Shown here piece by piece: positions 978-20,000 of a stretch of 20,000 nt of DNA; the first letter of the stretch is position 1, and each line of letters opens with the position of its first letter. A program made the position numbers and the translations under genes. Below the pieces are notes generated by a model. That model was not told the origin of the DNA, did not search any database, and saw only the letters and a list, made by a program, of their open reading frames with translations. The stretch is from Craspedostauros australis (taxonomy: Eukaryota), in NCBI GenBank assembly GCA_030167865.1, contig JALAGF010006284.1, positions 47,780 to 67,779 on the forward strand, read 5' to 3'.

Positions 978-2606
978 CTACGGCCTCGGCACAGTCTGCT
1001 TCTTGGCCGGATCAAAGTAGTACATGTCGATGAAGAAACCGTTCTGCCATTTGTGCCAGTGCGTGGCGTCGTTCGGCATGTGCCAATGAAAGCTGAGGTA
1101 GGCCGCATTCCAGACGTTGAGCACGGGAACGTTGAGCTCCTCCATCAGCCGATTCTGCTCGTCGTGAAGGAACCGTGCCGTCGATATGCTGGTGTACTTG
1201 ACGCGTGCCATGCAGTCGGGCTTGCAATGAGCGCGTGGCAGCACCGACATGTGGAAGGGTTGGGGCAATTTCCAGAGCAACGTGACCTTGGGGTACGCCT
1301 CGCGGTAAAACTCGATGGCCTCACGGAACATGCGCATGCTGGCGGTGAAGTTGGTGTCTTGCGCGGGGCCCTCGTAGCCATTGATGTCCCAAGCGGCGCT
1401 GTTGAGGATCATGGCCACCTTCTTCGTCGGGTCGTTGGCCAGCTCCAGATCTTCTGCGTGCGTGCGATTCAGCACCTCCGGTACCTTCTCTCTCCATATG
1501 TCGTATCGGAAGATCGATCCGATGTTTTCATCGACCTTCAGGTTGGGATACTCGAAGAAGTTCTTGCGGCCGTAATACCTGCCACAAAAGTTGTCCAACA
1601 CGGAATCTCCAAAGCATATGACGCGGTCGTACGACGAGAAATCCACAGTTGCCCCGACGCGATTCTCGGAATCCTGAACTTCGGGCGGGTACTCGAACGG
1701 TTGGATCTCCGGCGTCGTCAAGTTGAGCGTGGTGTAGTTGGTGTACATGTACCCTCCGTCGTTCCAATCGTCCTTGGCGGGACGCGTGAGACGACCTATG
1801 CCGCACGTGTATTCGTAGTACAGCACGAAGGAGCCATGGCCGTACAGCTCCCCGATCGGCTTCTCGAAGGGCGGCTCTTCGAATCGCAGCACGTACGTGC
1901 CGTCGTTGTTGTCGTGCACGTGCGCGGTGGCCGATGGAATGACGCGACCGTACATGGGATTCATCTCCGTGCGTCTGGCATCGTAAAAGACGGGGAAGAA
2001 CTCATCGCCGCCCATCATCTTGAGCGTTCCTTTCTCGTCCAGCGATTGGATGACGTATCGAACCGTCGTTCGTTTCGATTCTGTGTCTTCGATCGTCTGG
2101 ATGTGGAGCTCAAATTGGGCCGTGGGCACGCAGGTGGCATTCTGCATGAATTCCTCGTATATCTCATCTGTTTTGAATGCGCGTTTCAGGTCCCTGATGG
2201 CGGTCTCATCCGGCGCCGATGGGATTCGAACCATCTCCGACGCGACAAGCCGTTCATTGTCTGCAAGATGCTGCTGCAGTCGTTTTTGTTGCAGACGCTG
2301 CCTTTGGCTTGGTGTCAATGCTTGCGGCAAGACTTTGTGCCTGCGCGGCACTTGCGTTGCATTGGTCACGTCGTCTGCATCATCAGTCGCCGCGACTTCC
2401 TTGCTCAACGGGATGTCGTTGATAGAAACCTGCAGAGATCCGGCCTTGGTCATGAACACTGTTGCCTTCAGCGGCAGGAACACTCCGCACAGAAAGGCAA
2501 CGACCAGCGCCGCAGCGACTTTCAGGTTCCCCCTGGTGTTTTGCTTCTTCTGGGTTGTGCGATGCGGTGGTCGCACACCGACTTTCGATGTTCCATTCGT
2601 CGGCAT
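978..2606 (-). CDS. Type II membrane NXPE/PC-esterase (SGNH-fold) family protein, putative glycan O-acyltransferase/esterase
   Basis: 542-aa ORF with a basic N-tail and one TM helix (VAAALVVAFLCGVFLPL). NXPE-like Ig/filamin segment 'GGDEFF...VHDNNDGTYVLRF', catalytic 'CFGDS' (~1602-1613) and C-terminal DxxH 'NDATHW' (~1059-1070). Confidence 0.75.
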   Translation of the reverse strand: MPTNGTSKVGVRPPHRTTQKKQNTRGNLKVAAALVVAFLCGVFLPLKATVFMTKAGSLQVSINDIPLSKEVAATDDADDVTNATQVPRRHKVLPQALTPSQRQRLQQKRLQQHLADNERLVASEMVRIPSAPDETAIRDLKRAFKTDEIYEEFMQNATCVPTAQFELHIQTIEDTESKRTTVRYVIQSLDEKGTLKMMGGDEFFPVFYDARRTEMNPMYGRVIPSATAHVHDNNDGTYVLRFEEPPFEKPIGELYGHGSFVLYYEYTCGIGRLTRPAKDDWNDGGYMYTNYTTLNLTTPEIQPFEYPPEVQDSENRVGATVDFSSYDRVICFGDSVLDNFCGRYYGRKNFFEYPNLKVDENIGSIFRYDIWREKVPEVLNRTHAEDLELANDPTKKVAMILNSAAWDINGYEGPAQDTNFTASMRMFREAIEFYREAYPKVTLLWKLPQPFHMSVLPRAHCKPDCMARVKYTSISTARFLHDEQNRLMEELNVPVLNVWNAAYLSFHWHMPNDATHWHKWQNGFFIDMYYFDPAKKQTVPRP

Positions 2607-2977
2607 CGTTTCGTTTGGTTTTGAGTCGCAATGGGATGCGCAGGTGGTGTATCGCCCAAGAGTGCTCTGCTCTGTTCTGCTCTGTTATTCTATTGTTCCA
2701 TTGGAAGTCGAATGTCCTGTCCAAGTGGCCGCAATGTGAGTGTTGTGAACCGTTGTGCGGCTCTTTGGTGCGTTGGGTGGTGGCGGCCATTGGCACTGTG
2801 GCCGTTGACATGACTCGGACAAACAAGAGCGATGGTCATTGGTCGTGACTCAAACGCGAAAGACCAAACGTGAAAGAAAAGAATCCTCGCAACACAGAAC
2901 AAGGATTCTCTCTCTTTGTGCCGGAGAGGAGGCGAACTTCGCGCACCAACGGAACAACCAGAGATCAGATCGTTCTG

Positions 2978-3012
2978 CATGGATCCATTCCATGGATCCG
3001 TTCCATGAATCC
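2978..3012 (+). repeat. 13-bp tandem repeat (CATGGATCCRTTC x ~2.7) in the divergent intergenic region
   Basis: catggatccattc catggatccgttc catgaatcc. Confidence 0.7.
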
Positions 3013-3066
3013 ACAAAAGGAACAACACGTCCCAACACACAAACGGAATTGTCGCAACACCACCAT

Positions 3067-3100
3067 CACATTCACACCCACATTCACACCCACATTCACA
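3067..3100 (+). repeat. 12-bp tandem repeat (CACATTCACACC x ~3) in the putative 5' leader
   Basis: cacattcacacc cacattcacacc cacattcaca, directly upstream of ATG 3128. Confidence 0.75.
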
Positions 3101-3127
3101 TCTCTGAACGGTGAACACAGCGCCAAC

Positions 3128-4573
3128 ATGGGATCCACTCCTTCCGCGCCCGAACCTCCCGCATCCCGCGCACTGTCTCCAACAGCGGCCTCGCCGGATG
3201 CAAGTTCTGCCACCGAACAGGCCGTCCCTCTCGCAGAAATCGAAGTCGCCGATTCCAGGTTCATCGCCTACTGCATGGATTGCCGCGCCCTCGACGACGC
3301 CTTCGTCCTCCAGAAGATCCTCAAGGCCCAGCACCCCGATGCCGCGCATGTGCCCGTCGTGGCACTGAAGCGCCAGCCCGACGTCGTCTGCAAATGGTCC
3401 GAAGATGGAGAACCGGAGAATTCGGTGCTGCCGGCCATCAAGGCGACGATCTTGGAGCAGCCGGGTGGCGCCATTCTGGCTGTCGGCGTCGTGCGCTACT
3501 TTGGAGACCAGCTGCTGGGTGTCACGTGCGGGCGGCTGTCGCAATGCTACGCTGCGGTGACGCGGTTGGCCTTGCACCGCCAGTTCCATGGCGCGACGAC
3601 GCCGATGCACTACGATCTCACGCAGTCCGCCATCACGAAGGATCTCTACGGAATCGCCGCTGGCGATGCGGAGCTCATCCTCAACGTCATCGAGGAGACC
3701 GCGCCCGACACCAGGTTCCTGCTGGTCTCCAAGCTCATCCACGAGCTCAACTTCGATGGCTTCCAGGGTGCCAAGGGAGAGGAGCTGCCGCGGTTGCAGA
3801 ACCTGCAAGCTACCTCGCTCGAGAACGGCGCCATCATTCCCGTGTACCGATACCCCGGCAACTACCAAGGCGACGAGTGGGATACGTTCGATTGGAGCCC
3901 CACTACGAAGAGGGTCAAGGCGCAAGTCGAGAAGCGATTGCAACCGCTCGTGCATCAGACCATGAACCACTGCGTCACCAACTTTTATCGTGATGGCAAG
4001 GATCACATCGCACACCACAGCGACAAGGATCTGGATCTGAATCATGCCAGCGTCATCGTCAGCGTCAGTCTCGGCGACGAGCGCATCCTGGAATTGCGAC
4101 GCCGTGCCGAACCGCGCGACATCACCCGCATCCGCCTGCCGCACGGCTCCATGCTCGTGATGGGACCCAAGACGAACAAGCGCTTCACGCACTCCATCCT
4201 GGCCAACGAGGACAGCACGATGCCGCGCATCAGCCTCACCCTGCGCAATGTCACCACCTACATGGATCTGCGGACGGGCCGGCTGTTCGGGCAAGGTGTC
4301 GAGACCAAGGACGTCGCCGACATTCGGAACATGGAGCTGGTCGAGAACGGTTGCTTCCTTGCCGGGTTCTGCGCGCTGTCCTCCATCCTTCTGTCCAAAC
4401 GGCGCGCACGCGGACGCGCATCGGATGTGCTGGTGGCAGGCGGGGTCACGGGGGCCTTCTTCTGCGGCATGCACTTCTATCGCAACCTGATTGAACGCGT
4501 GCGACGTTCGAAGCAGGAACGCGCCGCACGCGATTTCTTCTCCAAGGCCTCCACGACCGGGACCAAATACTAG
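3128..4573 (+). CDS. IMPACT/YigZ (UPF0029) domain fused to an AlkB-like 2OG-Fe(II) oxygenase, with C-terminal hydrophobic segments
   Basis: The ORF track starts at 2870 (GTG), but ATG 3128 (gccaacATG, after a CA-rich leader) is more likely, giving 481 aa. IMPACT motifs: 'EVADSRFIAY', 'SEDGEP', 'VVRYFG..LLG'. AlkB motifs: 'NFYRDGKDHIAHHSD' (HxD 4016-4024), 'SVSLG', 'LPHGSMLVM', 'HSI' (His 4190), 'RISLTLR'. Confidence 0.85.
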   Translation: MGSTPSAPEPPASRALSPTAASPDASSATEQAVPLAEIEVADSRFIAYCMDCRALDDAFVLQKILKAQHPDAAHVPVVALKRQPDVVCKWSEDGEPENSVLPAIKATILEQPGGAILAVGVVRYFGDQLLGVTCGRLSQCYAAVTRLALHRQFHGATTPMHYDLTQSAITKDLYGIAAGDAELILNVIEETAPDTRFLLVSKLIHELNFDGFQGAKGEELPRLQNLQATSLENGAIIPVYRYPGNYQGDEWDTFDWSPTTKRVKAQVEKRLQPLVHQTMNHCVTNFYRDGKDHIAHHSDKDLDLNHASVIVSVSLGDERILELRRRAEPRDITRIRLPHGSMLVMGPKTNKRFTHSILANEDSTMPRISLTLRNVTTYMDLRTGRLFGQGVETKDVADIRNMELVENGCFLAGFCALSSILLSKRRARGRASDVLVAGGVTGAFFCGMHFYRNLIERVRRSKQERAARDFFSKASTTGTKY

Positions 4574-5380
4574 ACGACGGAGACTGACAAAGACAGTGAT
4601 GGATGTTATGCATTATAACATCAGAATACATATCTAGGATGTGCGTGAATGTTGGTGGCAGCAGCCATGCGGGCATCAGATAGCCATGTTGGATGAACAA
4701 CAATGGTAACGACGATGATGAAATTGTGACCATGTTCTTGTTTCGTGGATTGTCAAAACTCGCGCCAAGACAGCTGAGTCTTAACTGCCAGCTAACGTCA
4801 CACATACATATAACACGCTTCTCAACCGTGGTTGACCGGATGACGATTTTGGACTGGCGGGAACAACACCGTGAACAGAAGGGTATTTGCCTCCTGTCGC
4901 ATTTGTTTGTTTGTTGTTGTTGTTGATCTTGTTCCAACCAGAGCTGACACAAAACAGGAGCAACACCAACTTCTTGGATGTAAGTTCAGCTATTGCGACG
5001 AGCGACGGCGATGGCGATGGCAATAGTGGGGGGATAGATTGTGCTGTTGTATGAATGACGGTTACCGTATGCTGTCCAGTTCATCGGATGCAACGCATGT
5101 ACACGGAGTACTTCTTGGATTGGAGGAATGCGCTCACGTTCTCACGGTTGTTCTACATGCTCTGCACACTCTTTGTCGTCATTTCTCCCATTTCTTGTCA
5201 TTGCTTTGACTTTGGATTGTTGCTGCGATGGCTATGGATGGTGCCAACGACGATCGCAACAACAGCAACGACAATCATACTCTATTCCTTCATTCTCATT
5301 GGTTCCAGAAGACACGAGGAATAACACGGCGCAGCAGATGAGCAGAGCAAACCGAGTCGATCAGGAGAGGATAGTCAATA

Positions 5381-5511: not shown

Positions 5512-6645
5512 ATGGCGCCAGTCGGAAGACCCATCAAATCGATAACGCGGAATGCAGGATCCCGGGCAAACAGGGTCCAACCAACGCTTCCCTTCGGAAT
5601 CAAACTCAGCACTTGCCTTGGCATTGCTGGCCTTGTCATCTTGCGCGCTGTGTACCTGCGACCGGTGCCAGTCTACGATTCCTTTGATTGGGCCGTTGAC
5701 ACTGCGAGCGGTGGTAGCATGAGAGGCAAACATTTCATGCTGTCAGATACCGACTTCGCTTCGATTGCCACGAGCAGCAGCGCGACGTCCACCAAGAAGG
5801 AGGATCTCTGCCTGCAGCGATCCTTCCAGCGCCTTTGCAGCGCATACGACACGGACAGCATCATGGTCGATTGCATGCAATCACCGCGTGAGTTCTTTCT
5901 GGAGGAGTACAGCGGCTACAAACCATCCGAGGAGGAGCTGGAGGCACGCAAAATCATGAAGACCGTCAGCGCGGTGTCCATCGGAGCCGGTCCCAAAGCG
6001 AGCGGTCTGTGCAATCATGCCACCATAAATTCCAAAACACTGTGCACGGACCGACCGCAGCTCGATCTCTTCTACTTCCAAAGCTGGCTCAGTCTCACCC
6101 ACTCGGCGAACAACGGTCTCCGCGTCGTCTTCGCGGAGCACGTGCTGGAGCATTTCGATCCCATCCAGGTCGAGCGCGTTGCCGCAGCCGCCTTCGCCAT
6201 GATGCGACCAGGAGGAACATTTCGTGTTGCCGTGCCGGATGGATACAAGCCCAGTCCCAGCTACCAGCAGTACATCCGCGCCGGTGGCACGAGCTCGGGG
6301 CATGGTCAGAAGCACATGGTGGCGTGGACCGTGGACAATCTGTGCCCCATCTTCCAATCGGTCGGCTTCCAAATCGTGCAGAGGGAGCATTACGACTACA
6401 AGGGCGATTTCTTCTCCGCCCCCGATGCCTACGACAAGGATGAAACCATCGGAAAGATCAAACGATCCCAGAAACACGACAAGCGCAACGCGGAGGACTT
6501 TGAGGTCAAGACCCAAAATCACATGGGTAGATTGTCAAGGGATGATCTCAAGGAGGGCGAGAACGTCTACACCAGCCTGTGGTTCGATGCCGTCAAGCCA
6601 AAGGACTGTACAGCGCACATGGCGGGGTTGGAACAGAGTACGTAG
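5512..6645 (+). CDS. Membrane-anchored class I SAM-dependent methyltransferase (Methyltransf_11-like)
   Basis: 377-aa ORF with acaaaATG context and an N-terminal TM segment (LSTCLGIAGLVILRAVYL). Motif I-like 'VSIGAG', plus 'VFAEHVLEHF' and 'MRPGGTFRVAVPD', typical of class I methyltransferases. Confidence 0.8.
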   Translation: MAPVGRPIKSITRNAGSRANRVQPTLPFGIKLSTCLGIAGLVILRAVYLRPVPVYDSFDWAVDTASGGSMRGKHFMLSDTDFASIATSSSATSTKKEDLCLQRSFQRLCSAYDTDSIMVDCMQSPREFFLEEYSGYKPSEEELEARKIMKTVSAVSIGAGPKASGLCNHATINSKTLCTDRPQLDLFYFQSWLSLTHSANNGLRVVFAEHVLEHFDPIQVERVAAAAFAMMRPGGTFRVAVPDGYKPSPSYQQYIRAGGTSSGHGQKHMVAWTVDNLCPIFQSVGFQIVQREHYDYKGDFFSAPDAYDKDETIGKIKRSQKHDKRNAEDFEVKTQNHMGRLSRDDLKEGENVYTSLWFDAVKPKDCTAHMAGLEQST

Positions 6646-6799: not shown

Positions 6800-8767
6800 T
6801 CATCGCTCCGCGTTGGTCGCTTCAGGACACATCTCCTCGTACGGCACATTCACTTGCGTCAGCGGGCAGCCGAAGATCAGCTCTTCCATGCGATGATGCG
6901 CCCGATGGTAGCCCATCGAAACCTCCCAACCGCGCTTGGCGATGTCTTGCCGTTCCTCGTCGTGCTCCAAATAGTACTCGATGTGGCGGGGCAATTCTTG
7001 CAAGTCTCGAAAGAACACGAGGCTCGTCCCATTCTGCAATCCTTTCGGCAGCGACAGCATGACATCCGATAGGACCATCGCACCGGCCGACAGCGCTTCC
7101 ATCAACCGATAATGATCTTCCCAATTGTCGCGCCCCGTCACGATCACGATCTTGGCCGACAACGTGGCTTCCGCGTAGGCCGACGAGGCCTCATTGCGTC
7201 CCTGTCGACCAGGCGCGCCGGACACCGCGGTGATGGTCTGGATCTTGGTGCCCTTGCCAGGCAGCACCGCGCCCTGCAAACGCTTCACGACGATCGTGAC
7301 GGCGTTGCGGTAGTGGCCGTAAGCGCTCTTCGTCATGGGCCAGAAATGCGCCACGTCGACGGCATCGCGGATGAGGCTGTAGGGCGGTGGCAGACACACG
7401 TCGGCCCGTATCTGTCGGCCATTGTAGATCGCGTTCCAATGCGCGGCGGGGTCGTCGGTGCCGTGGAACAGGTCCTGCAGGGACTGCGTTTCTCCCACCG
7501 CCGATACGCGGGAGCTAAGGATCTGCTTGATCTGCTGGACATGGTCCGTGCGGACGGTGTACGATGTGTGCTTCGTCGGTCCTCCCAACGTGTTCGCGTT
7601 CGTTGGCATCTCCACGTAACCAAGGTTGAGACGCTTCTTCTTTTCATCGTAGGAGCGGTGTCGAATGATCATCCTCGTGGCAGTTCGGATATGCGCTTTG
7701 TCCTGAATGCCCTGTTGGATGGACCGGTCCGTGATGTTGTCATGCACCAATATTTTGTTGTAAAAATTGCCGGCGTAGAACCGATCCGAGTAGTCCACCA
7801 GCAGCAGCTTCCAAGGCGAATCAACCCCGTCGAACCACAGCTGCTGCAGGAAGGTGTTGTTCGCAAACACCTTTTGGCTGCGTGCGCGGATGACATCCAG
7901 GACCCACAGCTCGACGTGCGTTTCGGCATGCACCGTACAGTTGTTGGGATGATCTCTGTGCTTGTGGATGATGGGTTTGGCCCGCTTCCTCGTGGTCGGT
8001 TCCTCCGTCGTGTTGATCCAGTTCTTCGTGACTAGATTGCACATCTGCACCATCTCCATGAAATTGGACATTTTGATGCCATCGTACATGACGTGGATGC
8101 TCTCGCCCTGCATGGGCAACGCGGTACCGAATGCAACTCGCAGAGGTCGGTACTGCGTGATGCCCGGCGCCGCGATCGGTCCTTCCAGTCGGAAGGCCGA
8201 GATGTTGAAGAATGGCTCCGTTTTGTGGACGCCGCATTTCATAAGTTCCGCAACTGTTTTTGAGGTTGCCGCCAATGGTTTCGTGGTCGTTGATTTCGTG
8301 GTGGGCTTTATGGCAACAGGTTCGATCCTGGCATGGATCGATTGCGCTGATTGCACTGTTTGCGCCGACGTCGCTGTTGAATTGTCGACGCTGCTCAACA
8401 TGGCAATGGGAGATTTTGGATCATCGAGGGGCGGCTCGAAACCAGCAGAGATGTTGCTGGAATCATCCACAGACAGCTGCAGGGTCGTGTAGACTACTCG
8501 AATGGTGATGATGAAGCTGGCTGCGAAGACTATCAGGAACAGCACCGGCTTGCCCTTGGAGGCAGGCCTGCCTTCTTGAGTCGACTTCTGTCGCTGCATC
8601 TGCTTCTGCTTGTGCCACTGCCTTGGCTTGTGCGATTTGTCGTGCCTCTGATGCTCTGCTTCCGACGCAGCAAGCTTCTCCATGCCTCGTTGGCTGCCAT
8701 TGTCCATGCTCGTATCTCCATCTGCATTGGCATCGGCCAATGCCGGACGGCCGCTGGAAACACTCAT
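6800..8767 (-). CDS. Type II membrane GT-B glycosyltransferase (Glyco_trans_1_2 / YkvP-CgeB-like C-terminal domain)
   Basis: The ORF is open to 9010 (GTG). The start is uncertain; ATG 8767 was chosen and other in-frame ATGs exist. TM helix PVLFLIVFAASFIITIRVVY, S/T-rich stem, and C-terminal 'YRLMEALSAGAMVLSD...LVFFRDLQELPRHIEYYLEHDEERQDIAKRG' matching the Glyco_trans_1_2 pattern. Confidence 0.8.
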   Translation of the reverse strand: MSVSSGRPALADANADGDTSMDNGSQRGMEKLAASEAEHQRHDKSHKPRQWHKQKQMQRQKSTQEGRPASKGKPVLFLIVFAASFIITIRVVYTTLQLSVDDSSNISAGFEPPLDDPKSPIAMLSSVDNSTATSAQTVQSAQSIHARIEPVAIKPTTKSTTTKPLAATSKTVAELMKCGVHKTEPFFNISAFRLEGPIAAPGITQYRPLRVAFGTALPMQGESIHVMYDGIKMSNFMEMVQMCNLVTKNWINTTEEPTTRKRAKPIIHKHRDHPNNCTVHAETHVELWVLDVIRARSQKVFANNTFLQQLWFDGVDSPWKLLLVDYSDRFYAGNFYNKILVHDNITDRSIQQGIQDKAHIRTATRMIIRHRSYDEKKKRLNLGYVEMPTNANTLGGPTKHTSYTVRTDHVQQIKQILSSRVSAVGETQSLQDLFHGTDDPAAHWNAIYNGRQIRADVCLPPPYSLIRDAVDVAHFWPMTKSAYGHYRNAVTIVVKRLQGAVLPGKGTKIQTITAVSGAPGRQGRNEASSAYAEATLSAKIVIVTGRDNWEDHYRLMEALSAGAMVLSDVMLSLPKGLQNGTSLVFFRDLQELPRHIEYYLEHDEERQDIAKRGWEVSMGYHRAHHRMEELIFGCPLTQVNVPYEEMCPEATNAER

Positions 8768-11164
8768 GGGAAGATAGATGGTCGCCTGTTTCTTTTCTTG
8801 TTCTTCTGCTGCTGCTCTGCTGTTTCTTCCACTACGACTCTCCAGTACTTCATTGACTTCCAAGCAACATCGACATGGGGTATCACCAGCACTTGGATTG
8901 TCACCGCCTGTTCTATTGCCTTGCGAAACAGTTGCGAGTGCATCCGCAAAGTGTGGGAGAGATGGTCTTGGCATCCGCAGGTTGTATGTCGTCTTTTCTC
9001 CCTTGTGCACAACACAACAACTTCACAACAACAAGAGGCCCGTTGAACGTCACGGTACCAACAACGCTGGTTTCGACTACCAAGATACCGTATCATGTCA
9101 GTGTCGATACCATCAACGAACAAACGGACAACACTCGAAGCGAACTCAACGAATTCGCTGGACAAGAAATGACGCACAGCAATGACATCTTCGGCCTCCC
9201 CAGCGATCGGAAAATTCCGCCACCCAAGATACGGAAATACTTGACAATCGGCGACGTTCTGTGGCGGAAACGGACGAAGGGAGGCTCGCCAGCCAAGCAT
9301 TTTCCCGACGCTGGGGAGTATCAGATCCATGTTCTGAACCAATGATGCGTTCTGATTGGTGCAGGAGTGCTCATATCTTTTTTCTGATGGAGACATGGTT
9401 TTGATGTGTGCTGTCTCGTGACACGTGGTACAATTCGCTCGTATGTGAGGGTTTAGTGGAATGAGTACTGGATCGCGATCACAAGTCATTGCTCTTCTTC
9501 TCTTTTGCGCGCGGATGCGCGATGTTGCCGACACCATCCTCACCAATGATGGATGGTATCCCTCTCCAATCCACACTCGTGCATCCACGCACAGTTCCTC
9601 ACGACGAACACGCTCGACGCCGCAAGAAACAACGGCGGCATTGGCGAACTTCAAACGACCCGTTGGCGAAGTACCAGAAGCGCCGTAGAAACCCAACTCC
9701 GAAACATTGACAAAACTTGACCCTCGCTCCCTCCATAATTTCATTTTTGCCACCAACCAATCCAAACGAGACGCTGTCGTTCGGTTTGGTCGGGTTGGCT
9801 GACACGTACGAGGTTTACTTTTTGCCTCACGAAACACAACAGCAAAGCAACGCAAAAACAACGACACACAAAACAACACACCAGAACAAGCGCGTTGTCG
9901 TACCGTGACGGTTCGAACCTCGCACCACCACCCAATCAATCAATCAATCACCACACAAGCCAATCGCAGAACAAAAAAGGAACCTGGAATCTCGATTCCT
10001 CCAAATTAGTCTCACGCAAGCCAAAGGTAAGCAAATTGTGGCACGATGCTTCGAAGGACTTCGCAAGTCCCGTTTCAGACTTGCGAGGATTCCGTCCTTG
10101 CCTGTTGTTGTCCGCCGCACCGGTTGTCCCTCACCCCTGACGAAGGCGAAACACAGGCCAGCCACCACCACACCACGATCAACAGAAGCCCTTTCACCAC
10201 CACCAACAACAACAACAGGCACAGGAAATCAAAGATCGACCATGGCGGGTTAGTCGTGCCTCCACCACCGCAACCACGAAAATCCGAAACCCGCCCACCT
10301 CCTCTCAACCATCCACCAAAAACGCCTGAAAAAAGGGACCCATCAAACAACCTCCCAACCCAACCAATACGATGCAACAACCAAAACATGCACATGCACA
10401 CACACATACACACACTGGATCATACCTGGCAACACCCGACGATGACGAGGTGCGTGATTGGTATCAGCTCCAGATAATTCCTCTCTGAGGAATTGATGAA
10501 TGGGTGCATGGTTGGGCCCATCTTCTCCCTTCGACGCGGATCATGACATCCTCGAACCCGCTGACTCTTCGAACCGCACCTCTTCGAGAAGACATGGTTT
10601 GGTCGGGTTACATGCCGGCGTCTGGTGGCTTGGTCAGTGGTGTGGATGCTCGACGGACTTCTTGGCCGTGATGGTGCATGAGTGAGGGTGGTGGTCTGCT
10701 TGTGTGTGTGTTGATGTTCTGATGCTGTGATGCTCTCTCTCTGTTTCTCTTCGTGTTTCGGCTTTGTGTTGCTTTGGCGTCTTGTTCGCATTTCTTTGTC
10801 ATTTTCTGTCTGTTTTTGGCTTTGTCGGTCTTGTTGTTCTCATTGGGTCCAATGCTGTGTGTAGCCTCCAGTACATTCCCCACGGACATCGCACTTCTCG
10901 TCGAGACGGACAGACCATTCAATTCCTCCAGCCACAAGCGTGACACAAACAGTCGCACCTTTGATTATCCACGTTTGGACGGGACATCAACCCAAACCAT
11001 AACAACAACACCAACAGGACTCGTGGAATCTTTTATGTCGCATCAACACGTCCCATTCCAGAACCACACTAACCCATTCTTCCATTGTTCCACTTGCATC
11101 CCCTTCTCTGCAACTTCATTGCCATCATGACGACAGACCATCCAACAGCAACGGCAACGCCAAC

Positions 11165-14100
11165 ATGACTGGCGATCAAGGGAACGGCGGCAACGATGGG
11201 CCCCATGCACCACAGTCAGCAGCGCCATCATCGTCCCCACATAAACAGTCTCAAGTGCTGGAACAGACGCTCGCATCCCCTGCGCTGGGTCGCAAGCGGC
11301 CCCGGATCTGCCGTCTCGTGTCCTACGACAACATCGTCTCCCCACTTCCGATGCAATATCCTAGCTGCGAGAAGAATGTCATCAAGGTGCCAGGACTTCA
11401 AACCCACATCGAGGACGCTGCGATGGTCGCCGCCCATGTGGATGAAAACAGAAAACCCAACTCGAAAGTGCTGCTGCCACCACTGTCAGCATCGATGAAC
11501 ACGCAACCATCGTCCGCTGACCCGCTACGCGATCGTCAGCTCCTGAGCCTTCATCTCACAGCAATCCGGCTGGAGGTTGAGCTGCAGCCAATGCGATCAA
11601 TCCTTTCAAAGCTGATGATGCATCAGGCACACAACCGCAAGGGGATCTTCAACTCTCCTGTCGATCCTGCAGCCCTCAAGCTCCCAGACTACTTACGCAT
11701 CATCGCACAACCCATGGATCTCGGAACCGTCAAACGCAGGCTCCATGCAGTCGCGTACAAATGCAGAAGCGACGTGGCGGCGGACGTTCGACTCACATTC
11801 CATAACGCCATGAAGTACAACCCACCGCACAACGCCGTCCACAACGCTGCCAAGCAGCTCCTGGTAATCTTTGAAAACGCCTACCAAACGCTGGATCCCA
11901 CACCCAGCGACCCACCAATCGCGCAGGCGGTTGCCGTAGCTGTCCCAATTGCCACCGTAGCTCCTTCCACAAGCAGTATCCCAGCATCTGCGCAGAGCCT
12001 ACCGACGGCAACAGCTCAATGCATGCCGGTTGCAGCCACCGCGCCTCCCACTGCATCGCAAGCTCTACCTGTACTGTCAGCACTGTCCCCGCGTGCAAGG
12101 CCAGCCGGGCGACGCACGTCCTTCCACCATAGCGAACTACCATCTGCCCCGACGCTCAAGCGCAAGCGATCCTGTTCGAGCTCCCTCTCGATCAGTGCCC
12201 ACAATCATCAACAGCACCGCTGCGACGAATGCCATGGACGCGAATGCGCCATGTGTCTGCAAGGGTGCCTGCTCCACGAACCGAGTTTGGTCATCTGCCA
12301 AGGACAGGCCTGCGCCGGAGCGAGACTTCGCAAGGGTGCCCAATACCACGTGACAAGAGACGGCACCCAGCAATACTGCCAACGATGCTACGCCAACCTC
12401 CCTCCGACGCTGCCACGCAATCCCAACGACCCCGTCATCTACAAGCAACATCTCCTCAAGAGAAAGAACGACGAGGAGGTGGCGGAGAAATGGATCACAT
12501 GTAGCAAGTGCGACATCGGCATGCATCAGATCTGCGCCATGTTCAACCCTGCCGTCCATTCGAGGGACAACTTCTTCTGTCCGCCGTGCAGAAACATCTC
12601 AGCAACGCCGAGCGTCAGCCACACAAACCAGAGCGAGGACGCCATCATTCCCGAGCACGCGCTGTACACGTACATGAGTGGGTATGACGCCCCCGTCCCC
12701 ATGTCGAGCATCGTATCTGACAACAGCACCACTCCCGGCGATGGCATGCCCACCGCAGACAGCCTCCCCAAGTGCGCCATCTCGTCTTTCATCGAAGACA
12801 AGGTGCGGTCCAAGGTGCAGGCCATTCCCAACGCTGGCGCAACCATCACCGTTCGCATCGTCTCTGACTGCGACCGATCATTCGTGGTCCCGGACGCCAT
12901 CCGTAGACATTTTCGCATGAATGCGGATGGTGCCGCACACCATGGAGGCCGCGTTGTGAAACCACCGAAGAGAGTGAATTACAACCAAAAAGCGATCATG
13001 CTGTTCCAGAGAATCGACGGCCACGACGTCTCCGTCTTCTCCATGTACGTCCAGGAATACGAAGGCAATGACGAATACGAGGTTGAGAACGAACAAACAG
13101 GCCAGCGCTGCACGACGGACAACCACACTGTCAAAGCACCCCACGCAAAGAGGGTGTACATCGCGTACCTTGATTCTGTGGAGCATTTCCGCCCCCGCAA
13201 GTGCCGGACGACCGTGTACCACGAGATCATCGTCGCGTACCTTGCAACAGCAAGAGAGCAAGGATTCGAGACGGCGCAGATTTGGGCGTGCCCACCATCG
13301 AAGGGGAGTTCCTTCGTTTTTTGGAATCATCCAGCATCGCAACGGACGCCCAACCAAGATCGGCTGACTGCGTGGTACAACTCCGTGCTCAGCCGTGGCG
13401 TTGATTGCGGGGTCATCACGGACATCAAGAGTCTGTACGAAAGCGAATTCCAAACTCCTCTGAACCAAGTCAAGCAGGCCTATGCACACCATGCAGCAGC
13501 TGCAGCAGCAGACGGATCTGCATCTGGCGTGTCTTTGCACGATGGACGCATGCTGGCCCCGCCACTCCTGGACGGCGATTTTTGGCTGGAGGAGGCTGTG
13601 CGAATTCACACGGCGAGTCTGCTTCGGTACCAGAAGAGCAAGTCAACGCATGAGGTCTGTGTGTGGAATGTCACCCCCACCAACTTCCAAGATCTGGATC
13701 CATGCCCCGCCGTTCAGATTGCCTCGCTGATCCGAGAGCGCATCATCACGCACCCATCTGCGGCGGCCTTCCGCAAACCGGTGAATGCGGCTGCTCTCAA
13801 GCTGAAGGATTATCACAAGATCGTCACCAAGCCCATGGACCTTGCAACCATCTACTCGAAGTGCACTATCGGAGAATACTACACACTTCGGGAGGTCATC
13901 GATGACGTGGAGTTGATGGTCGCCAATGCAAAGCGTTTCAACCCGCCTGGACACTTTGTGCACCTCAAGGCCACAGAAGTCTTGGACATCTTCTACCAAG
14001 AGCTCGATGCCCTGTGCATGCACTGGCCAACTGAGCAAGCATCATCCAGCACAGACCAGCACCAACAGGGACAGGGACAAGGACAGGCGCAAGTGCAGCC

Positions 14101-15385
14101 GTCCCGAAGCATGTTTACCTCGATGAATATGGCATTGGATCACATCATTGCCGTGCATGGGCCAAAGCAGGCATCGGCTACAGTCATGACGCCCCATGCG
14201 ACAACCAGTGTTGTCATTGAGGATGATCCATCGATCGATTGCTCCAAGTCTCTCGGTGGATCATCCATGGACACATCGACATTTTCCGCGCAGTCCATCA
14301 AGGACTCCAACTCTCACGCCAACACTCAGTCTGAACGTGAACTGTCGCCCGATGCGCAATCCCAACTCCACTCCGGTACCATCTACAGCACCAGCAGCAG
14401 CCAAGGTTGCCAACACTCCTCATCAGTGACAGTCGTATCAACCGGAGTCCTTCCGCCCAAACAGCAGCAGCAGCCCAAGAAGCTGGATTTGCTTACGGGC
14501 GGACCTGAGGCCGTCCATGAGCGCATGTGCGGCGACGACACATTTCTGATGAAGAAATCAAGCTCGCCATCCAGCAAGAACAACCCTGGCCGCACCTCTG
14601 CCAAGACCTCAAGCAAGAAATCCGGCGGCAAGAAACGCCGTGGCTCGACTTGCTGCGCAACATCATCCAACACGACTCCGTCAGCATCCGGAGGTGCATC
14701 CGTCACGACCGCGTCAACAGGCTCTGGCATGTCATCGGCTGCGAACAAAAAACGTCGACAATCATGGCTGGGTGAAGAAGTGGCAGACTGCGTGCGCCGG
14801 ATGCGTCTGACCCTGTTCACTTGCTCGTTGGGTGGTCCATCCAAACCTACTGACGCAAATACCTCAACCACCACGACATCGCCGACACCAACAACGAACA
14901 TGTCAGCGGTCGAGGCAAAGCAGGCCGAGTATCAACAGTACGCAGCCTCTTTCCGCACGAAGACAACAACAGCAGCAACAACAACGCCGTCGTCAACAGC
15001 ACCACCTACCTTCCGATCAAAGATTGCCGACGCCAGACACACTCTGTTGGAATTTTCCCAATACCGGCACTTCGAGTTCGACACTTTGCGACATGCAAAG
15101 TACAGCACGAAGATGCTGGTCTACTACCTCCAGAATGACGACGCTCCAGGCATCGTCCCGCATTGCACGAGCTGCAAAAAGACGATCCAAAAGGTGCGAT
15201 GGCACCGAACCAAGAAGCACGCAGAACGACAACGGCAACGATCATCGTCAGTCGGGAGCAAGAAGGCTGCGCAGACGCCAGTCACCACCGTCCCGTGGAC
15301 ACCGGAAGAATTGTGCGGATCATGTCATGAAATCCGCAACGACAATGATGACTTCATTCCGGTTCCGGTCTCCATCAAACCATGA
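11165..15385 (+). CDS. CBP/p300-family (KAT3) histone acetyltransferase: bromodomain, RING/PHD, HAT, second bromodomain, degenerate ZZ
   Basis: 1406-aa uninterrupted ORF. Bromodomain 1 'IFNSPVDP..LKLPDY..II.QPMDLGTV...NAMKYN'; PHD 'WITCSKC..MHQIC...FFCPPC'; HAT motifs 'MYVQEY', 'RVYIAYLDSV', 'IWACPP', 'RLTAWY', 'GDFW', 'FEFDTLRHAKYST'; bromodomain 2 'FRKPVN...DYHKIVTKPMDL...NAKRFN'. Confidence 0.93.
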   Translation: MTGDQGNGGNDGPHAPQSAAPSSSPHKQSQVLEQTLASPALGRKRPRICRLVSYDNIVSPLPMQYPSCEKNVIKVPGLQTHIEDAAMVAAHVDENRKPNSKVLLPPLSASMNTQPSSADPLRDRQLLSLHLTAIRLEVELQPMRSILSKLMMHQAHNRKGIFNSPVDPAALKLPDYLRIIAQPMDLGTVKRRLHAVAYKCRSDVAADVRLTFHNAMKYNPPHNAVHNAAKQLLVIFENAYQTLDPTPSDPPIAQAVAVAVPIATVAPSTSSIPASAQSLPTATAQCMPVAATAPPTASQALPVLSALSPRARPAGRRTSFHHSELPSAPTLKRKRSCSSSLSISAHNHQQHRCDECHGRECAMCLQGCLLHEPSLVICQGQACAGARLRKGAQYHVTRDGTQQYCQRCYANLPPTLPRNPNDPVIYKQHLLKRKNDEEVAEKWITCSKCDIGMHQICAMFNPAVHSRDNFFCPPCRNISATPSVSHTNQSEDAIIPEHALYTYMSGYDAPVPMSSIVSDNSTTPGDGMPTADSLPKCAISSFIEDKVRSKVQAIPNAGATITVRIVSDCDRSFVVPDAIRRHFRMNADGAAHHGGRVVKPPKRVNYNQKAIMLFQRIDGHDVSVFSMYVQEYEGNDEYEVENEQTGQRCTTDNHTVKAPHAKRVYIAYLDSVEHFRPRKCRTTVYHEIIVAYLATAREQGFETAQIWACPPSKGSSFVFWNHPASQRTPNQDRLTAWYNSVLSRGVDCGVITDIKSLYESEFQTPLNQVKQAYAHHAAAAAADGSASGVSLHDGRMLAPPLLDGDFWLEEAVRIHTASLLRYQKSKSTHEVCVWNVTPTNFQDLDPCPAVQIASLIRERIITHPSAAAFRKPVNAAALKLKDYHKIVTKPMDLATIYSKCTIGEYYTLREVIDDVELMVANAKRFNPPGHFVHLKATEVLDIFYQELDALCMHWPTEQASSSTDQHQQGQGQGQAQVQPSRSMFTSMNMALDHIIAVHGPKQASATVMTPHATTSVVIEDDPSIDCSKSLGGSSMDTSTFSAQSIKDSNSHANTQSERELSPDAQSQLHSGTIYSTSSSQGCQHSSSVTVVSTGVLPPKQQQQPKKLDLLTGGPEAVHERMCGDDTFLMKKSSSPSSKNNPGRTSAKTSSKKSGGKKRRGSTCCATSSNTTPSASGGASVTTASTGSGMSSAANKKRRQSWLGEEVADCVRRMRLTLFTCSLGGPSKPTDANTSTTTTSPTPTTNMSAVEAKQAEYQQYAASFRTKTTTAATTTPSSTAPPTFRSKIADARHTLLEFSQYRHFEFDTLRHAKYSTKMLVYYLQNDDAPGIVPHCTSCKKTIQKVRWHRTKKHAERQRQRSSSVGSKKAAQTPVTTVPWTPEELCGSCHEIRNDNDDFIPVPVSIKP

Positions 15386-15728: not shown

Positions 15729-17774
15729 TCATGCAGTCCACGCGAGAATCGGCAACTTTTGCGTTCGAAGATGCTGCGTCGTTGCACTCTCACCGGTCGT
15801 CGTTTTCTTCACTGGCTCCGGATTGCAGCACTTGGGGTCGGTAGGTGGTGGCGGCGGGCCATCCACGAACTCCACCGATTCCAACCACCATTCAGGATAC
15901 CCCACGATCTGCGCCAAGTTATCCGGCTCATTGATAAAGCCGTTGGCGTACTTGAACAGGAGCTGATCGGACAATTGCCACTGGGCATCGACGATGCGCT
16001 GCGCGTTGTCCAGGAGGAGCTGTGGCTGCAGCGGCGTATTTTGCTTGACAAGTTCGACGGATGCGGATTCCAGCTGCGACTGCAAGGCGCGAATGTCTTG
16101 GATCATGTAGGACCACTTGAGGTTGGAGATGTTGCTGATCACTGTGGTGGCCCAAAAGGCAGATGTGCGTTCCATTTTGTATGGATTGGCGCTGCGGAAG
16201 GTGGCGGGGATGTCCGGCATGCTTACGGTGAAGGGTGTGAAGACAGTGGACAGCGCTGCCGAGGGTCCGTACCACAAGACCGGTTCAGATGGAGACGCAG
16301 TGGTAGTGCCATCAGAATCAGCAACAACAGCACCCACCGATGTTTGTACGATGAATGTATCGGATGTTCGGAACATGGCGATAGCACGTTCCCACGCCCC
16401 GCCGACCTTGTCTTCGTTGCCGCCCTCCTTCCATCGGTCCGGCGACGAGAATGCTCCTCCGCCCAAATTGCCCGATTTCGTGAGATCGTACTTCGTCCCG
16501 GCGTAGTACTCGCGATGCAAGGCCATGATATCTTGCACGGCGACGTTGTTGGCCTTGCAGTACACGGGGAAGGCTGGATCGGACTGCAAATCCACGTAAT
16601 CGTCGCGCGTGATGACTTCGGGACACACCAGCCTGTAGGCACCCCACATGCGACGGCCGCTGTAGTACTTGTGGGAGTACTCTCCGTCGCTGTAGACCTT
16701 GGTGAAATCGAGCAGACCGTCGGTGTCCGCATCGTACCAGCCGTAGTCTGTGGCCACGGAATGCACGTTGTCGCTCATGAGGTAGTTTGCGGTGTCGTCG
16801 GGATCGATCTCGCGGATGACGAACATGTTGGCAAGCACGGCGAACCCGTCCGTGGGAATGCGCTGCGCGGCCCAGATGGCGGATGTCCCGGTGGGATCGG
16901 GCAAGATGTGGAACAGCCACCCTTCTCCCGTCTGGCTATCCGTGATGGCCAACGATTCGGCTGTGCCTTCAAATTGACCGGCACCGTAAAAGCCACCATG
17001 GTACTCCGCCAATTCCCCCATGAGCTGGACTGCCTCGCGCGCCGTGGCGGCACGCTCCATCGCGATCTGCGTGAGCTGATCGATGCTCCAAAGCGCTGTA
17101 CCGTCCTTCTGCCCCAACGGCACGGCACCGAACACGCCGGAGCAGGTGGATTCCCCCATCGCGAGCCCGGCCTCGTTGACGACGCCGTACGTGTCCTCCA
17201 GGTACGCGAATGTCGTGGCAGCATCACCATTGCCGAATTTCAATCCCAAGTTCGGTGCAGTGCCAATGGCTTCGAATGGAGTTGGATGGTCGGCAGTTGG
17301 GAAGTACTCCGGGATCAGGCCGCGCTCCGTGCCAACGTATCGTGGGTAGTCTTCCGGGGTGAAGTAGACTGGGCGCTTGTCACCATCCTGCGTGTAGGTC
17401 TTGGCGGGGATTCTGACCAAGCGCGGATCCGTATCCATTTCGCCATCGTTGGAATGCGTCACCATGCTGGATCCTTCGGAGCTGGCGTCTGTTGTTGCGA
17501 GTGGTGGGATGGGTGGAGAGTCAGCGGGTGTCACAGGATGGTGAGGAATTGGGAGGAGTCAGTATTCAGGCTCTGGCCTGCATGCGAGAGACAGCACTCT
17601 ACTATATCTGCTGAACAGGCAAGCGCTGCGTGGCACTCGCATTCGCATGTTCTGGCGTATGGTACTATGCCTTACGACAATATAATGCGTACCTTTGCCA
17701 ACGAGAAAGACCGAGCATGCGGACGCGGACGATGCCAGCACCACGGCCAGCAACGGTGGAAGGATCAAACGCAT
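15729..17774 (-). CDS. Secreted peptidase family C69 (dipeptidase/secernin-like Ntn hydrolase); two exons 17774-17693 and 17488-15729
   Basis: gccaccATG at 17774 encodes signal peptide MRLILPPLLAVVLASASASA followed by CSVFLVGK. Splicing gives VGK-DASSEGSSMVTHSND, the C69 N-terminal consensus. Downstream motifs: 'NEAGLAMGEST', 'TAREAVQLMGELAE', 'IWAAQRIP', 'YSGRRMW', 'WERAI'. The spliced CDS is 1842 nt (613 aa). Confidence 0.88.
17489..17692 (-). other. Spliceosomal GT-AG intron (204 nt, phase 1) in the C69 peptidase gene
   Basis: Donor AAAG|GTACGC at 17693/17692, branch-like GCTGAC near 17520-17525, acceptor CAACAG|AC at 17489/17488. The join restores the frame and the conserved motif. Confidence 0.85.
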
Positions 17775-18090
17775 GGTGGCAGCAGAGATGGAGCAACCTC
17801 CTGCTGTTGTTGTTATGCTGTTGTTGTGATGTTGTGTCTCTGTTTGGATTCGATTGAATGTTGTGCGAAGAAGGATGACGACTGACGAAACGAAAAGAAC
17901 GTTGATGGGTCTTTTGATCTGGGACACCCAACAAATTGTCCATTTCATGAGTTTTTCTGGGTCAACTACTCATTACGGGACTCGATAATGGAGGATTATT
18001 TCTGAGAAATTGTTCTCGAAAGGAAAAATGGATATTTTTGCTTCTTTGCAATTGTCATCTGAGATCCGAAATTGTGCCTGAAAATGAGTT

Positions 18091-18240
18091 GGACAATGGC
18101 AGACAATGTCAGACAAAATTTGACCGAATTAGACAAAATGAGACAAAGTGAGACAAAACCAGACAGAATCAGAAAGCGTCAGACAAAGTCAGACAGAAGT
18201 AGACAAAATCAGACAAAGCCGGACAAAGCGAGACTCAGGC
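18091..18240 (+). repeat. Degenerate 10-bp tandem minisatellite, ~15 units, consensus AGACAAARTC
   Basis: ggacaatggc agacaatgtc agacaaaatt tgaccgaatt agacaaaatg agacaaagtg agacaaaacc agacagaatc agaaagcgtc agacaaagtc agacagaagt agacaaaatc agacaaagcc ggacaaagcg agactcaggc; the 10-nt register is kept throughout with no indels. Confidence 0.9.
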
Positions 18241-18604
18241 TGATGACGGAAATTAGAGTGGGCGATGAATCAGTTGCTCTCTCCAGACTATGGACCTGCG
18301 ACTTTGCTCTGATATGAGTGATATTGTATTACAAATAGCAATTCCCACAGTACAATATAACCTCATCGAGATATTTTTGGAGGGGCAACATGCGAATTNC
18401 CCCCCCTCGGAAATTGAAACACAATCGAGTTTCACGTCGCAGTCCCGGCAATAGACCTTCCACATGTCGAAACGAAATAAACGCTCAATCATATCTCTTC
18501 ATGTACAATAGCGTTTCGTCATATTTGTCATACTGATGATGGATGCATTGGCATGCTCGCAAAGAAGAAGCTAGCATTCTAGTGTGAAGGATACATGGAG
18601 CAAT

Positions 18605-19788
18605 AGAGAGTGAAAGCAATGTTGGATATGCCTACAAACTTCATCTGTGATATTTGCGTGCAATTAGCAGCGACTCCCTTCATAGTCCAGCCAAGGAAGC
18701 TTTGCTCATTGCCCATTTCATCCGATGCATCATACATGGTGTGCTCCTGGATTCTCTGAGGATCGGTGCCCTCTGATATGACCAGGAACTTGGACCAACA
18801 CGCATTTTGCATCCTTTGGAGCTCCTGATTGCCATANNNNNNNNNNNNNNNNNNNNNNNNNNNNNNNNNNNNNNCATAGCAATAGTTCTGTGTAGACTGC
18901 ATGAGGAGCTTCTATTGGACAGCAAACTGCTGATCCATCTCCATGATATGGTGATCAAGAAGTCTCTGCCATCGATATTGGCAAGAGAGACTTGAACAAG
19001 CCAGGAAGTAGCAGGGACGAAATGCTTGCGCCTCTGTTATTGGACTTCTGGTAGTGGCAAAGTTGCGACAGAAGAGATGGCAACAAAAATCTCACAATAC
19101 TAGGCTATGAAGAGGAGAAAGAGAGATATGCATTGCATGCAACTCAGGACACACCCATTAATGATCCTACCNNNNNNNNNNNNNNNNNNNNNNNNNNNNN
19201 NNNNNNNNNNNNNNNNNNNNNAGAGAGTGAAAGCAATGTTGGATATGCCTGCAAACGTCATCTATGATATTTGCGTGCAATTAGCAGTGACTCCCTTCAT
19301 AGTCCAGCCAAGGAAGCTTTGCTCATTGCCCATTTCATCCGATGCATCATACATGGTGTGTTCCTGGATTCTCTGAGGATCGGTGCCCTCTGATATGACC
19401 AGGAACTTGGACCAACACGCATTTTGCATCCTTTGGAGCTCCTGATTGCCATANNNNNNNNNNNNNNNNNNNNNNNNNNNNNNNNNNNNNNCATAGCAAT
19501 AGTTCTGTGTAGACTGCATGAGGAGCTTCTATTGGACAGCAAACTGCTGATCCATCTCCATGATATGGTGATCAAGAAGTCTCTGCCATTGATATTGGCA
19601 AGAGAGACTTGAACAAGTCAGGAAGTAGCAGGGACGAAGTGCTTGCGCCTCTGTTATTGGACTTCTGGTAGTGGCAAAGTTGCGACAGAAGAGATGGCAA
19701 CAACAATCTCACAATACTAGGCTATGAAGAGGAGAAAGAGAGATATGCATTGCATGCAACTCAGGACACACCCATTAATGATCCTACC
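18605..19788. repeat. Direct duplication of a 567-bp unit (18605-19171 and 19222-19788) separated by a 50-N gap
   Basis: Offset is 617. By eye there are 9 substitutions in 529 called bases, and both copies carry a 38-N run at the same position (18837-18874 and 19454-19491). Confidence 0.95.
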
Positions 19789-19898
19789 ATCATTTTTGTC
19801 TCAACATGTGATGCGATAACATGCAACAGAGCATCCAGACCAGAGCAGTCTTGAAAGAGCACTACCGTAAAAATCACAAGGGGAAAGCAAAAGCAAAG

Positions 19899-19968: not shown

Positions 19969-20000
19969 TGCAATTGCTGAACCAAACACAAGTGAAATAA

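Follow-up and report, generated by a model that had tools for sequence, protein, structure and literature searches.

A 20,000-nucleotide stretch of Craspedostauros australis DNA (contig JALAGF010006284.1 of assembly GCA_030167865.1, positions 47,780 to 67,779 of the forward strand), referred to here at its full length as the window, encodes a 481-residue protein in which three modules follow one another on a single chain: a UPF0029 domain of the IMPACT/YigZ type, an AlkB-type Fe(II)/2-oxoglutarate (2OG) dioxygenase whose ligands are intact, and a hydrophobic C-terminal module. This architecture is conserved across diatoms and is no local accident, the same two domains occur in the opposite order in dinoflagellates, and the AlkB domains linked to UPF0029 form a single clan. 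From these features we infer, with a confidence that is about evenly balanced, an active demethylase or hydroxylase of nucleic acid, probably of RNA, in which UPF0029 would be an obligate partner and which would probably be tethered to a membrane.

The coding sequence lies in a plus-strand frame that is open from 2870 to a TAG stop at 4571-4573, and translation from the ATG at 3128 gives the 481 residues.

3128..4573, plus strand: coding sequence of the three-module protein, 481 amino acids and a TAG stop, intronless, with a gap-free full-length match to 27 relatives.

The original prediction, made from the letters alone, described one intronless open reading frame (ORF) joining an IMPACT/YigZ-like domain to an AlkB domain, and this description holds, both domains being complete by Pfam and by fold. 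The motifs that it quoted sit where it had placed them, with DSRF (3251-3262), EDGEP (3401-3415) and VVRYFG (3488-3505) in the first domain and HHSDKD (4013-4030), THSI (4187-4198) and RISLTLR (4226-4246) in the second. Its account of the extent of the feature was right for UPF0029 and AlkB and fell short at the end, with nothing described after about 4260, where the conserved third module (residues 379-481) lies.

The first module and its hallmark residues are placed as follows.

3224..3592, plus strand: UPF0029 (IMPACT/YigZ "ancient") domain, residues 33-155, by Pfam PF01205, phmmer and structural superposition.
3251..3538, plus strand: UPF0029 hallmark residues S43, F45, H74, D93, E95, P96, R123 and G131, by alignment to 1vi7, in invariant family columns.
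3548-3550, plus strand: UPF0029 hallmark residue Y141, by alignment to 1vi7, in an invariant family column.

Profile and structure both identify the N-terminal part as UPF0029, so that the mismatch which the original prediction had named as refuting it does not arise. PF01205 matches residues 42-149 (E 3.1e-11, 43.6 bits, curated cut-off 27) and covers profile positions 2-107 of 107, and phmmer against E. coli YigZ (1vi7) gives an E-value of 2.6e-8. The domain, predicted with a pLDDT of 92.9 when folded alone, has its secondary structure in the order beta-beta-alpha-beta-beta-alpha-beta-alpha, and the modelled residues 33-155 superpose on YigZ 1vi7 with Z 16.0-16.1 and a root-mean-square deviation (rmsd) of 2.1-2.2 over 120 residues, on T. 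thermophilus TTHA1053 (2cve) with Z 15.3-15.4, and on the ancient domain of Yih1 (6bqi, residues 133-258) with Z 7.2. Weaker fold neighbours (Z 4.5-6.4), which include GHMP kinases, ribosomal uS9, EF-G domain IV, MutL and RNase PH-type chains, have in common with the model only its general arrangement. The motif set SRF, AxH, DGEP, RYxG..LG and Y is present in the alignment to YigZ, and all of the hallmark residues listed above are identical in YigZ and invariant in a family alignment of 28 sequences. Since the same hallmarks are kept as in YigZ, UPF0029 seems to be under the constraint of the free-standing family here and not a decayed remnant. The NCBIfam cut-offs for the YigZ family are not reached (TIGR00257, 47.5 vs 167.95; NF008600, 37.8 vs 298), the match being limited to profile positions 14-127 of 205. 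No Pfam family other than PF01205 and PF13532 matches the 481-residue protein at E up to 1, and the absence of a visible RWD domain, already remarked in the original prediction, is borne out at that level. In the accessible part of PMC4503747, the invariant features of Yih1 and YigZ are described as clustering on one side of the domain, whose function "remains elusive", and the accessible part of PMC6822775 gives a negative phyletic coupling of PF01205 with PF02594.

The second module follows the first after a short junction.

3608..4258, plus strand: AlkB-type Fe(II)/2OG dioxygenase, residues 161-377, N-terminal extension included, by PF13532 and fold.
3980-3988, plus strand: N285-x-Y287 motif, upstream of RxxxxxR, invariant in 28 of 28 sequences.
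4016..4024, plus strand: Fe(II) ligands H297 and D299, which match the HxD motif in ALKBH2 and are the same in all 28 sequences.
4190..4192, plus strand: distal Fe(II) ligand H355, by alignment to ALKBH2, invariant in 28 of 28.
4226..4246, plus strand: 2OG-binding arginines R367 and R373 of RxxxxxR, by alignment to ALKBH2, invariant in 28 of 28.

PF13532 (2OG-FeII_Oxy_2) matches residues 200-373 (E 6.3e-26, 92.2 bits, curated cut-off 31.2), and the N-terminal extension carries GAGDxE, LPRLQNLQ and YRYPGNY. The modelled residues 161-377 superpose on ALKBH3 (8jnr) with Z 20.9 and rmsd 2.3 over 192 residues, on ALKBH2 (3h8o) with Z 19.3 and on E. coli AlkB with Z 16.8. Foldseek returns ABH2 and ABH3 as best matches (E 2e-14), the top one being ABH2 bound to double-stranded DNA (dsDNA), and phmmer against solved structures ranks ALKBH2 chains first (E 1e-14), with ALKBH3 at 2e-12. 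The complete HxD...H triad and the RxxxxxR motif, which the original prediction had recognised, align with those of ALKBH2 and are invariant in the family alignment, as is the N-x-Y motif, presumably with the role that it has in AlkB structures; judged on these ligands, the AlkB domain would be catalytically competent. D301 lies in an H-x-D-K-D context, presumably as in E. coli AlkB, in which the last Asp of that motif recognises the exocyclic amine of 1mA/3mC. Also conserved in the family are the aromatic lid residues of YRYPG and the residue at the position of AlkB D135. The basic RKK loop of ALKBH2 contacts the second DNA strand, and its position reads N-E-D here and is variable in the family. 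The equivalog cut-offs for E. coli AlkB are not reached (NF011930, 26.8 vs 267; TIGR00568, 24.9 vs 231).

The full-length AlphaFold2 model, built on the 28-sequence alignment, has a mean pLDDT of 82.8 and a pTM of 0.79, and the 10-residue blocks that span the domain junction (141-170) reach a pLDDT of 91-96. UPF0029 and AlkB would thus be built as one rigid unit. A complex prediction of the UPF0029 part with the AlkB part, run without controls, gave a score of 0.00, from which no verdict follows.

The third module occupies residues 379-481 and comprises four features.

4277..4297, plus strand: post-AlkB strand motif GRLFGQG, residues 384-390, conserved, also in standalone and reverse-order relatives.
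4337..4393, plus strand: hydrophobic helix 1, residues 404-422, Kyte-Doolittle 19-residue mean 1.71.
4421..4477, plus strand: hydrophobic helix 2, residues 432-450, Kyte-Doolittle 19-residue mean 1.21.
4511..4570, plus strand: C-terminal tail with the consensus EE..AR.FFSK.S.SGTKY-COOH, near-invariant, which ends the protein.

In the AlphaFold2 model, the hydrophobic stretches are long helices (396-423 and 433-472). Among 144 three-module proteins, the named positions of the tail are 67-95% conserved, and post-AlkB hydrophobic segments with a mean of at least 1.0 number at least one in 143 and at least two in 109; the residues of these segments vary among relatives while their hydrophobicity is kept, and the segments of the Paulinella homologue reach Kyte-Doolittle values of 1.68 and 2.29. 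A signal-like hydrophobic N-terminus is found in only four of the 144. A search of the ESM Atlas with residues 378-481 gave no usable match. The pattern of hydrophobicity suggests that the two helices probably form a membrane hairpin, with the enzyme and the tail on the cytosolic side.

PF01205 and PF13532 do occur together in one protein when checked by profile, and the three-part architecture is found across diatoms. A word-based search scored 8000 candidates, of which 196 reached an E-value of 1e-3 or better, and in 115 of the 120 matches listed both Pfam domains are present, with an identity to the window protein of 41-59%. All of the organism-named matches among those listed are diatoms, namely Cylindrotheca (2), Nitzschia (2 and one shortened name), Bacillariaceae, Attheya, Amphora and Minutocellus, and later look-ups added Seminavis, Discostella and an MMETSP entry beginning "Thalas". 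The sole non-diatom named member with three modules is a full-length record from a Paulinella chromatophora transcriptome. Both domains are present in at least nine entries labelled MMETSP, which we take to be a transcriptome project, and several of these are named "ORF ... type:complete" transcripts; complete ORFs of this kind speak against two separate products in the orthologues.

A profile search over 1.84 billion representatives returned 12,357 matches at E 1e-3 or below and 326 at 1e-30 or below, with about 28 full-length clusters above about 380 bits, followed by a sharp drop in score to matches of the AlkB part only. By HMMs for the three parts, 291 collected proteins divide into 144 with UPF0029-AlkB-Cterm, 18 with AlkB-UPF0029, 8 with UPF0029-AlkB, 13 with AlkB-Cterm, 107 with AlkB only and 1 with UPF0029 only. 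Seven of the eight UPF0029-AlkB proteins look like fragments, and the only complete-looking one without the C-terminal module is P0154, an AT-rich singleton for which the word-based search found no close relatives. Pattern scans confirmed no relatives in prokaryote genomes with the family alignment (28 pattern matches), nor in viral contigs (8 matches) or metagenome contigs (195 matches) with P0154. One family member, P0127 of Seminavis robusta, is publicly named "isochorismatase family"; Pfam finds only UPF0029 and AlkB in it, and the name looks transferred from fungal relatives.

The next-best representatives carry the two domains in the opposite order, AlkB first and UPF0029 second (P0156, P0157, P0158, P0162, P0167, P0170 and P0184). 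At a threshold of E 1e-10, a search with P0157 gave 34 proteins; the 17 highest-scoring make up the reverse-order family, and precomputed Pfam annotation places both domains in 15 of these 17. The named organisms are the dinoflagellates Effrenium voratum and Amphidinium carterae, so that the pairing extends to a second phylum of algae. Further domains are added in some members, with an extra N-terminal Methyltransf_32 before AlkB-UPF0029 in P0271, P0274 and P0275, and a related reverse-order protein, P0181, has the arrangement FHA-AlkB-UPF0029. Searched with the dinoflagellate P0157, the ESM Atlas yielded nothing beyond the diatom cluster and generic clusters of AlkB, with scores of at most 0.87.

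Only AlkB domains with at least 190 HMM positions covered and a span below 330 residues went into the trees. The 128 rows represent three-module proteins (17 of 144, taken as alternate rows of the 28-sequence alignment plus P0138, P0136 and P0291), P0154, reverse-order proteins (15 of 18) and AlkB-only proteins (95 of 107), and hold no ALKBH2 or ALKBH3 sequences. In a quick LG+G4 tree, one branch separates 45 rows from 83 with an SH-aLRT of 99, and a careful PMSF tree of 81 rows (the 45 and 36 drawn at random from the 83) gives the identical split, with a branch length of 0.51, UFBoot 100 and SH-aLRT 99. The 45-row clan includes every forward-order and reverse-order protein in the tree, and UPF0029 is present in 35 of its rows vs none of the 83 on the other side, counting two rows first labelled AlkB-only that a mixed UPF0029 HMM added, P0275 (full) and P0276 (start cut off). 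UPF0029-linked AlkB domains therefore form one clan, which excludes the fungal-type isochorismatase-AlkB-GST relatives. Within it, the forward group lies in a 22-row set with support of 91/70 and the reverse group in a 20-row set with weak support of 42/71. Since the trees are unrooted and the sample consists of the best matches to the diatom profile, they make the linkage with UPF0029 a property of one AlkB clan and do not give the number of fusion events.

A Pfam scan covered 86 of the 107 AlkB-only relatives and found no PF01205 among them. An isochorismatase domain is present in 32 of them, many of which also have thioredoxin-like PF24470 and GST, in a fungal-type protein of about 1000 residues in the order isochorismatase, AlkB, thioredoxin-like PF24470 and GST (P0174, P0187, P0189, P0205 and others). 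Those of the isochorismatase type that have an organism name come from fungi (Pseudomassariella and Acarospora), as does one AlkB-only relative (Sphagnurus), and a full-text literature search found no paper on the isochorismatase-AlkB architecture. Single cases among the 86 join AlkB to RING or to a HopJ-family domain, and P0164 and P0248 belong to this group of proteins with further partners. The clan members without UPF0029 that adjoin the forward-order group are P0202, P0229 and P0232. P0232, which JGI names pseudouridylate synthase, and P0229 are GC-rich, low-complexity proteins with a weak RluA-like region after AlkB (NCBIfam E 1.4e-4 and 2e-3, respectively). The usual catalytic motif of RluA-type enzymes is HRLD, and it is altered here to PID or VE; this region may be an inactive, RNA-binding domain of the pseudouridine-synthase-like kind. 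The AlkB subfamily nearest ALKBH2/3 thus has many partners, among them UPF0029, isochorismatase with GST, FHA, RING, methyltransferase and a pseudouridine-synthase-like region. The public automatic names of UPF0029-AlkB proteins are "putative IMPACT family translation regulator", "alkylated DNA repair dioxygenase AlkB" and "isochorismatase family"; the first and the last of these mislead, which matters for annotation.

Since the nearest solved relatives act on nucleic-acid bases, an AlkB enzyme of the ALKBH2/ALKBH3 structural type would be expected to remove or hydroxylate alkyl groups on such bases here. UPF0029, with its conserved polar face kept, could be an obligate module for recognition of the substrate or ligand or for a coupled step, and the two post-AlkB helices, as a membrane hairpin, would leave the enzyme and the invariant tail in the cytosol. 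RNA, whether tRNA, rRNA or ribosome-bound mRNA, would be favoured over nuclear DNA as the substrate for several reasons, each weak alone: because nuclear DNA is an improbable target for a protein that is tethered to a membrane and has no targeting signals, because the dsDNA-contacting RKK loop of ALKBH2 is not kept, because clan members recruit methyltransferase and pseudouridine-synthase-like regions, and because the only known biology of the ancient domain, as far as the accessible portions of the literature go, is linked to translation. The suggestion of the original prediction that UPF0029 acts as a substrate-binding or partner module has gained support from the reverse-order pair and the single clan, while binding, or any other role of the domain, is as conjectural as before. 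More tentatively, and well short of an even chance, AlkB-UPF0029 could be an old two-component module for the repair or modification of nucleic acid (RNA), in which the job of UPF0029 would be to recognise a damaged or modified nucleotide, to recognise the tRNA or ribosome bearing that nucleotide, or to catalyse a step that is coupled to oxidative dealkylation. If so, the opposite-order fusions of diatoms and dinoflagellates would give the first direct access to what UPF0029 does, and the diatom form would in addition be targeted to a membrane surface.

Several observations weigh against an RNA-directed, membrane-tethered enzyme with UPF0029 as its obligate partner. ALKBH2-like and ALKBH3-like affinities are inseparable, given phmmer E-values of 1e-14 and 2e-12, Z-scores of 19.3 and 20.9 and tied Foldseek E-values. 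Ten of the 45 clan rows carry no detectable UPF0029 (P0202, P0229, P0232, P0141, P0164, P0179, P0254, P0286, P0253 and P0178). The hydrophobic segments are marginal, a Kyte-Doolittle value of 1.6 being reached in only 57 of the 144 three-module proteins, and the helices could instead be a packing or dimerising helical hairpin. The nearest outside AlkB clan is fused to isochorismatase (32 of the 86 scanned), thioredoxin-like PF24470 and GST, which are small-molecule enzyme types, and the RluA-like matches lie far below the curated cut-offs (21 vs 192.7 bits). The function of the ancient domain is "still unknown" in the accessible part of a 2020 review (PMC7140605).

An alternative would be a DNA repair dioxygenase of the ALKBH2 kind, removing lesions of the 1mA/3mC type, perhaps from organellar DNA or from DNA at the nuclear envelope, with UPF0029 as a DNA-binding or regulatory add-on. 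We consider this unlikely: ALKBH2 chains are indeed the best sequence matches among solved structures, ABH2 on dsDNA is the top Foldseek match, and H-x-D-K-D and the aromatic lid residues are conserved, but ALKBH3, an enzyme of single-stranded DNA and RNA, fits at least equally well by structure (Z 20.9 vs 19.3), the RKK loop position is N-E-D and variable, and a conserved hydrophobic C-terminus, in a family where 140 of 144 proteins have no signal-like N-terminus, does not suggest an enzyme of the nucleus or an organelle matrix. A dioxygenase acting on protein or on a small molecule is improbable to the same degree; UPF0029 would in that case be an enzyme or ligand-binding domain of a two-step metabolic or detoxifying enzyme at the membrane. 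The isochorismatase, thioredoxin-like and GST fusions of the sister clan point that way, as do the invariant polar residues of UPF0029 (S, H, D, E and R), clustered on one face according to the accessible part of PMC4503747, and the presence of GHMP kinases among the weaker fold neighbours (Z 4.6-6.4). However, a strongly supported branch separates the UPF0029-linked clan from the isochorismatase clan, the closest solved folds and sequences are nucleic-acid demethylases, the residue aligned to AlkB D135 is conserved, and Z-scores of 4.5-6.4 indicate no more than a common arrangement.

It is very improbable, finally, that the fusion is an artefact of two adjacent genes read as one, or that the N-terminal domain has decayed. 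In favour of an artefact, contigs from one sequencing run, the kind of which is guessed, cover 4048-4486 and 4502-4726, none of them spanning the domain junction. Nevertheless, the frame is uninterrupted, the identical junction recurs in 115 of the 120 relatives listed, complete transcriptome-derived ORFs included, and UPF0029 scores above its Pfam cut-off over the full profile, with invariant hallmarks and a confident model of the domain alone (pLDDT 92.9).

The ATG at 3128 is the second in the frame, and an earlier one at 3005 would add 41 residues.

3005..3127, plus strand: possible N-terminal extension of 41 residues, or 5' untranslated region, with an upstream in-frame ATG, in a part that relatives do not have.

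Because relatives begin just before the UPF0029 domain, 3128 is more likely to be the true start than 3005. Starting at 3005 would bring into the protein a (CACATTCACACC)-like (CACATT-type) repeat at about 3060-3100; a 35-base piece of this repeat (3066-3100) matched an unrelated contig of 2.5 kb from the sequencing run mentioned above. On the opposite strand, an ORF at 2690-4474 matched no Pfam family.

The surrounding region of the window is gene-dense, with long ORFs without introns. On the plus strand, 11165-15385 is an uninterrupted ORF of 1406 residues with HAT_KAT11 and two bromodomain stretches, by which its product would be p300/CBP-like. The gene is neighboured by ORFs at 978-2606 (minus), 5512-6645 (plus), 6800-9010 (minus) and 15729-17534 (minus), and the products of the neighbouring ORFs are listed as a 542-residue protein without a Pfam family, a weak Methyltransf_23 match (23 vs a cut-off of 27 bits), Glyco_trans_1_2 and peptidase C69. 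The GC content falls to 0.40-0.46 in 17500-20000 vs 0.51-0.62 over most of the window.

The original prediction did not know this architecture as characterised, and a search of the open full-text literature, which leaves subscription journals and closed supplements outside, found no paper that describes or tests it. On that search the UPF0029-AlkB-Cterm architecture would be new to the literature, while the proteins themselves are already in public databases. Judged by titles and the starts of abstracts, the papers listed for YigZ include none on its biochemistry, and the accessible part of PMC11312118 uses no IMPACT, UPF0029, ALKBH2 or ALKBH3 term in a relevant sense. UPF0029 occurs in bacteria, archaea and eukaryotes, and its function is called unknown in the accessible parts of PMC4503747 and PMC7140605. 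Its fusion to a well-understood enzyme class provides an assayable hypothesis, in which UPF0029 and an AlkB dioxygenase would act on a shared substrate; kept across diatoms, reversed in dinoflagellates and confined to one AlkB clan, this fusion is a Rosetta-stone lead for an orphan universal domain and brings into the AlkB family a member that is probably tethered to a membrane.

Among known systems, the AlkB domain most resembles human ALKBH2 and ALKBH3, having in common with them a double-stranded beta-helix with an N-terminal extension (189-192 residues aligned, 22-27% identity) and the same HxD...H, N-x-Y and RxxxxxR ligands; unlike the window protein, those enzymes have neither UPF0029 nor a hydrophobic C-terminus. 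It is probably an orthologue of neither, since in trees of the sampled relatives, which hold neither enzyme, it falls into an algal clan of its own. The subfamily may be ALKBH12, an unconfirmed assignment: ALKBH12 is placed within the ALKBH2/3 super-group, in fungi and diatoms, in Table 3 of Mielecki et al. 2012 (PMC3265494), the accessible main text of which does not mention IMPACT or UPF0029, and this spread fits the finding of fungal relatives as the next-nearest clan here.

The N-terminal domain is like YigZ (1vi7) and TTHA1053 (2cve), with 27-31% identity and the motifs SRF, AxH, DGEP, VVRYxG and LLG; unlike in YigZ, no second YigZ domain is matched and AlkB follows instead. With eukaryotic IMPACT and yeast Yih1 it has the "ancient" domain in common, whereas it lacks their RWD domain and begins within about 35 residues of the N-terminus, and without RWD there is no basis for regulation of GCN1/GCN2. 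ALKBH8, an RNA-modifying RRM-AlkB-methyltransferase protein of tRNA wobble modification, offers an analogy only, in that its AlkB is also built into a multi-domain enzyme (Z 13.6 with 3thp for the AlkB domain), but it belongs to another AlkB subgroup and has other partner domains. A further parallel is the uncharacterised dinoflagellate AlkB-UPF0029 protein (e.g., P0269 of Effrenium voratum), which has the same two domains and an AlkB of the same clan and differs in their reverse order, in having no hydrophobic hairpin or tail and, in some members, in the addition of Methyltransf_32.

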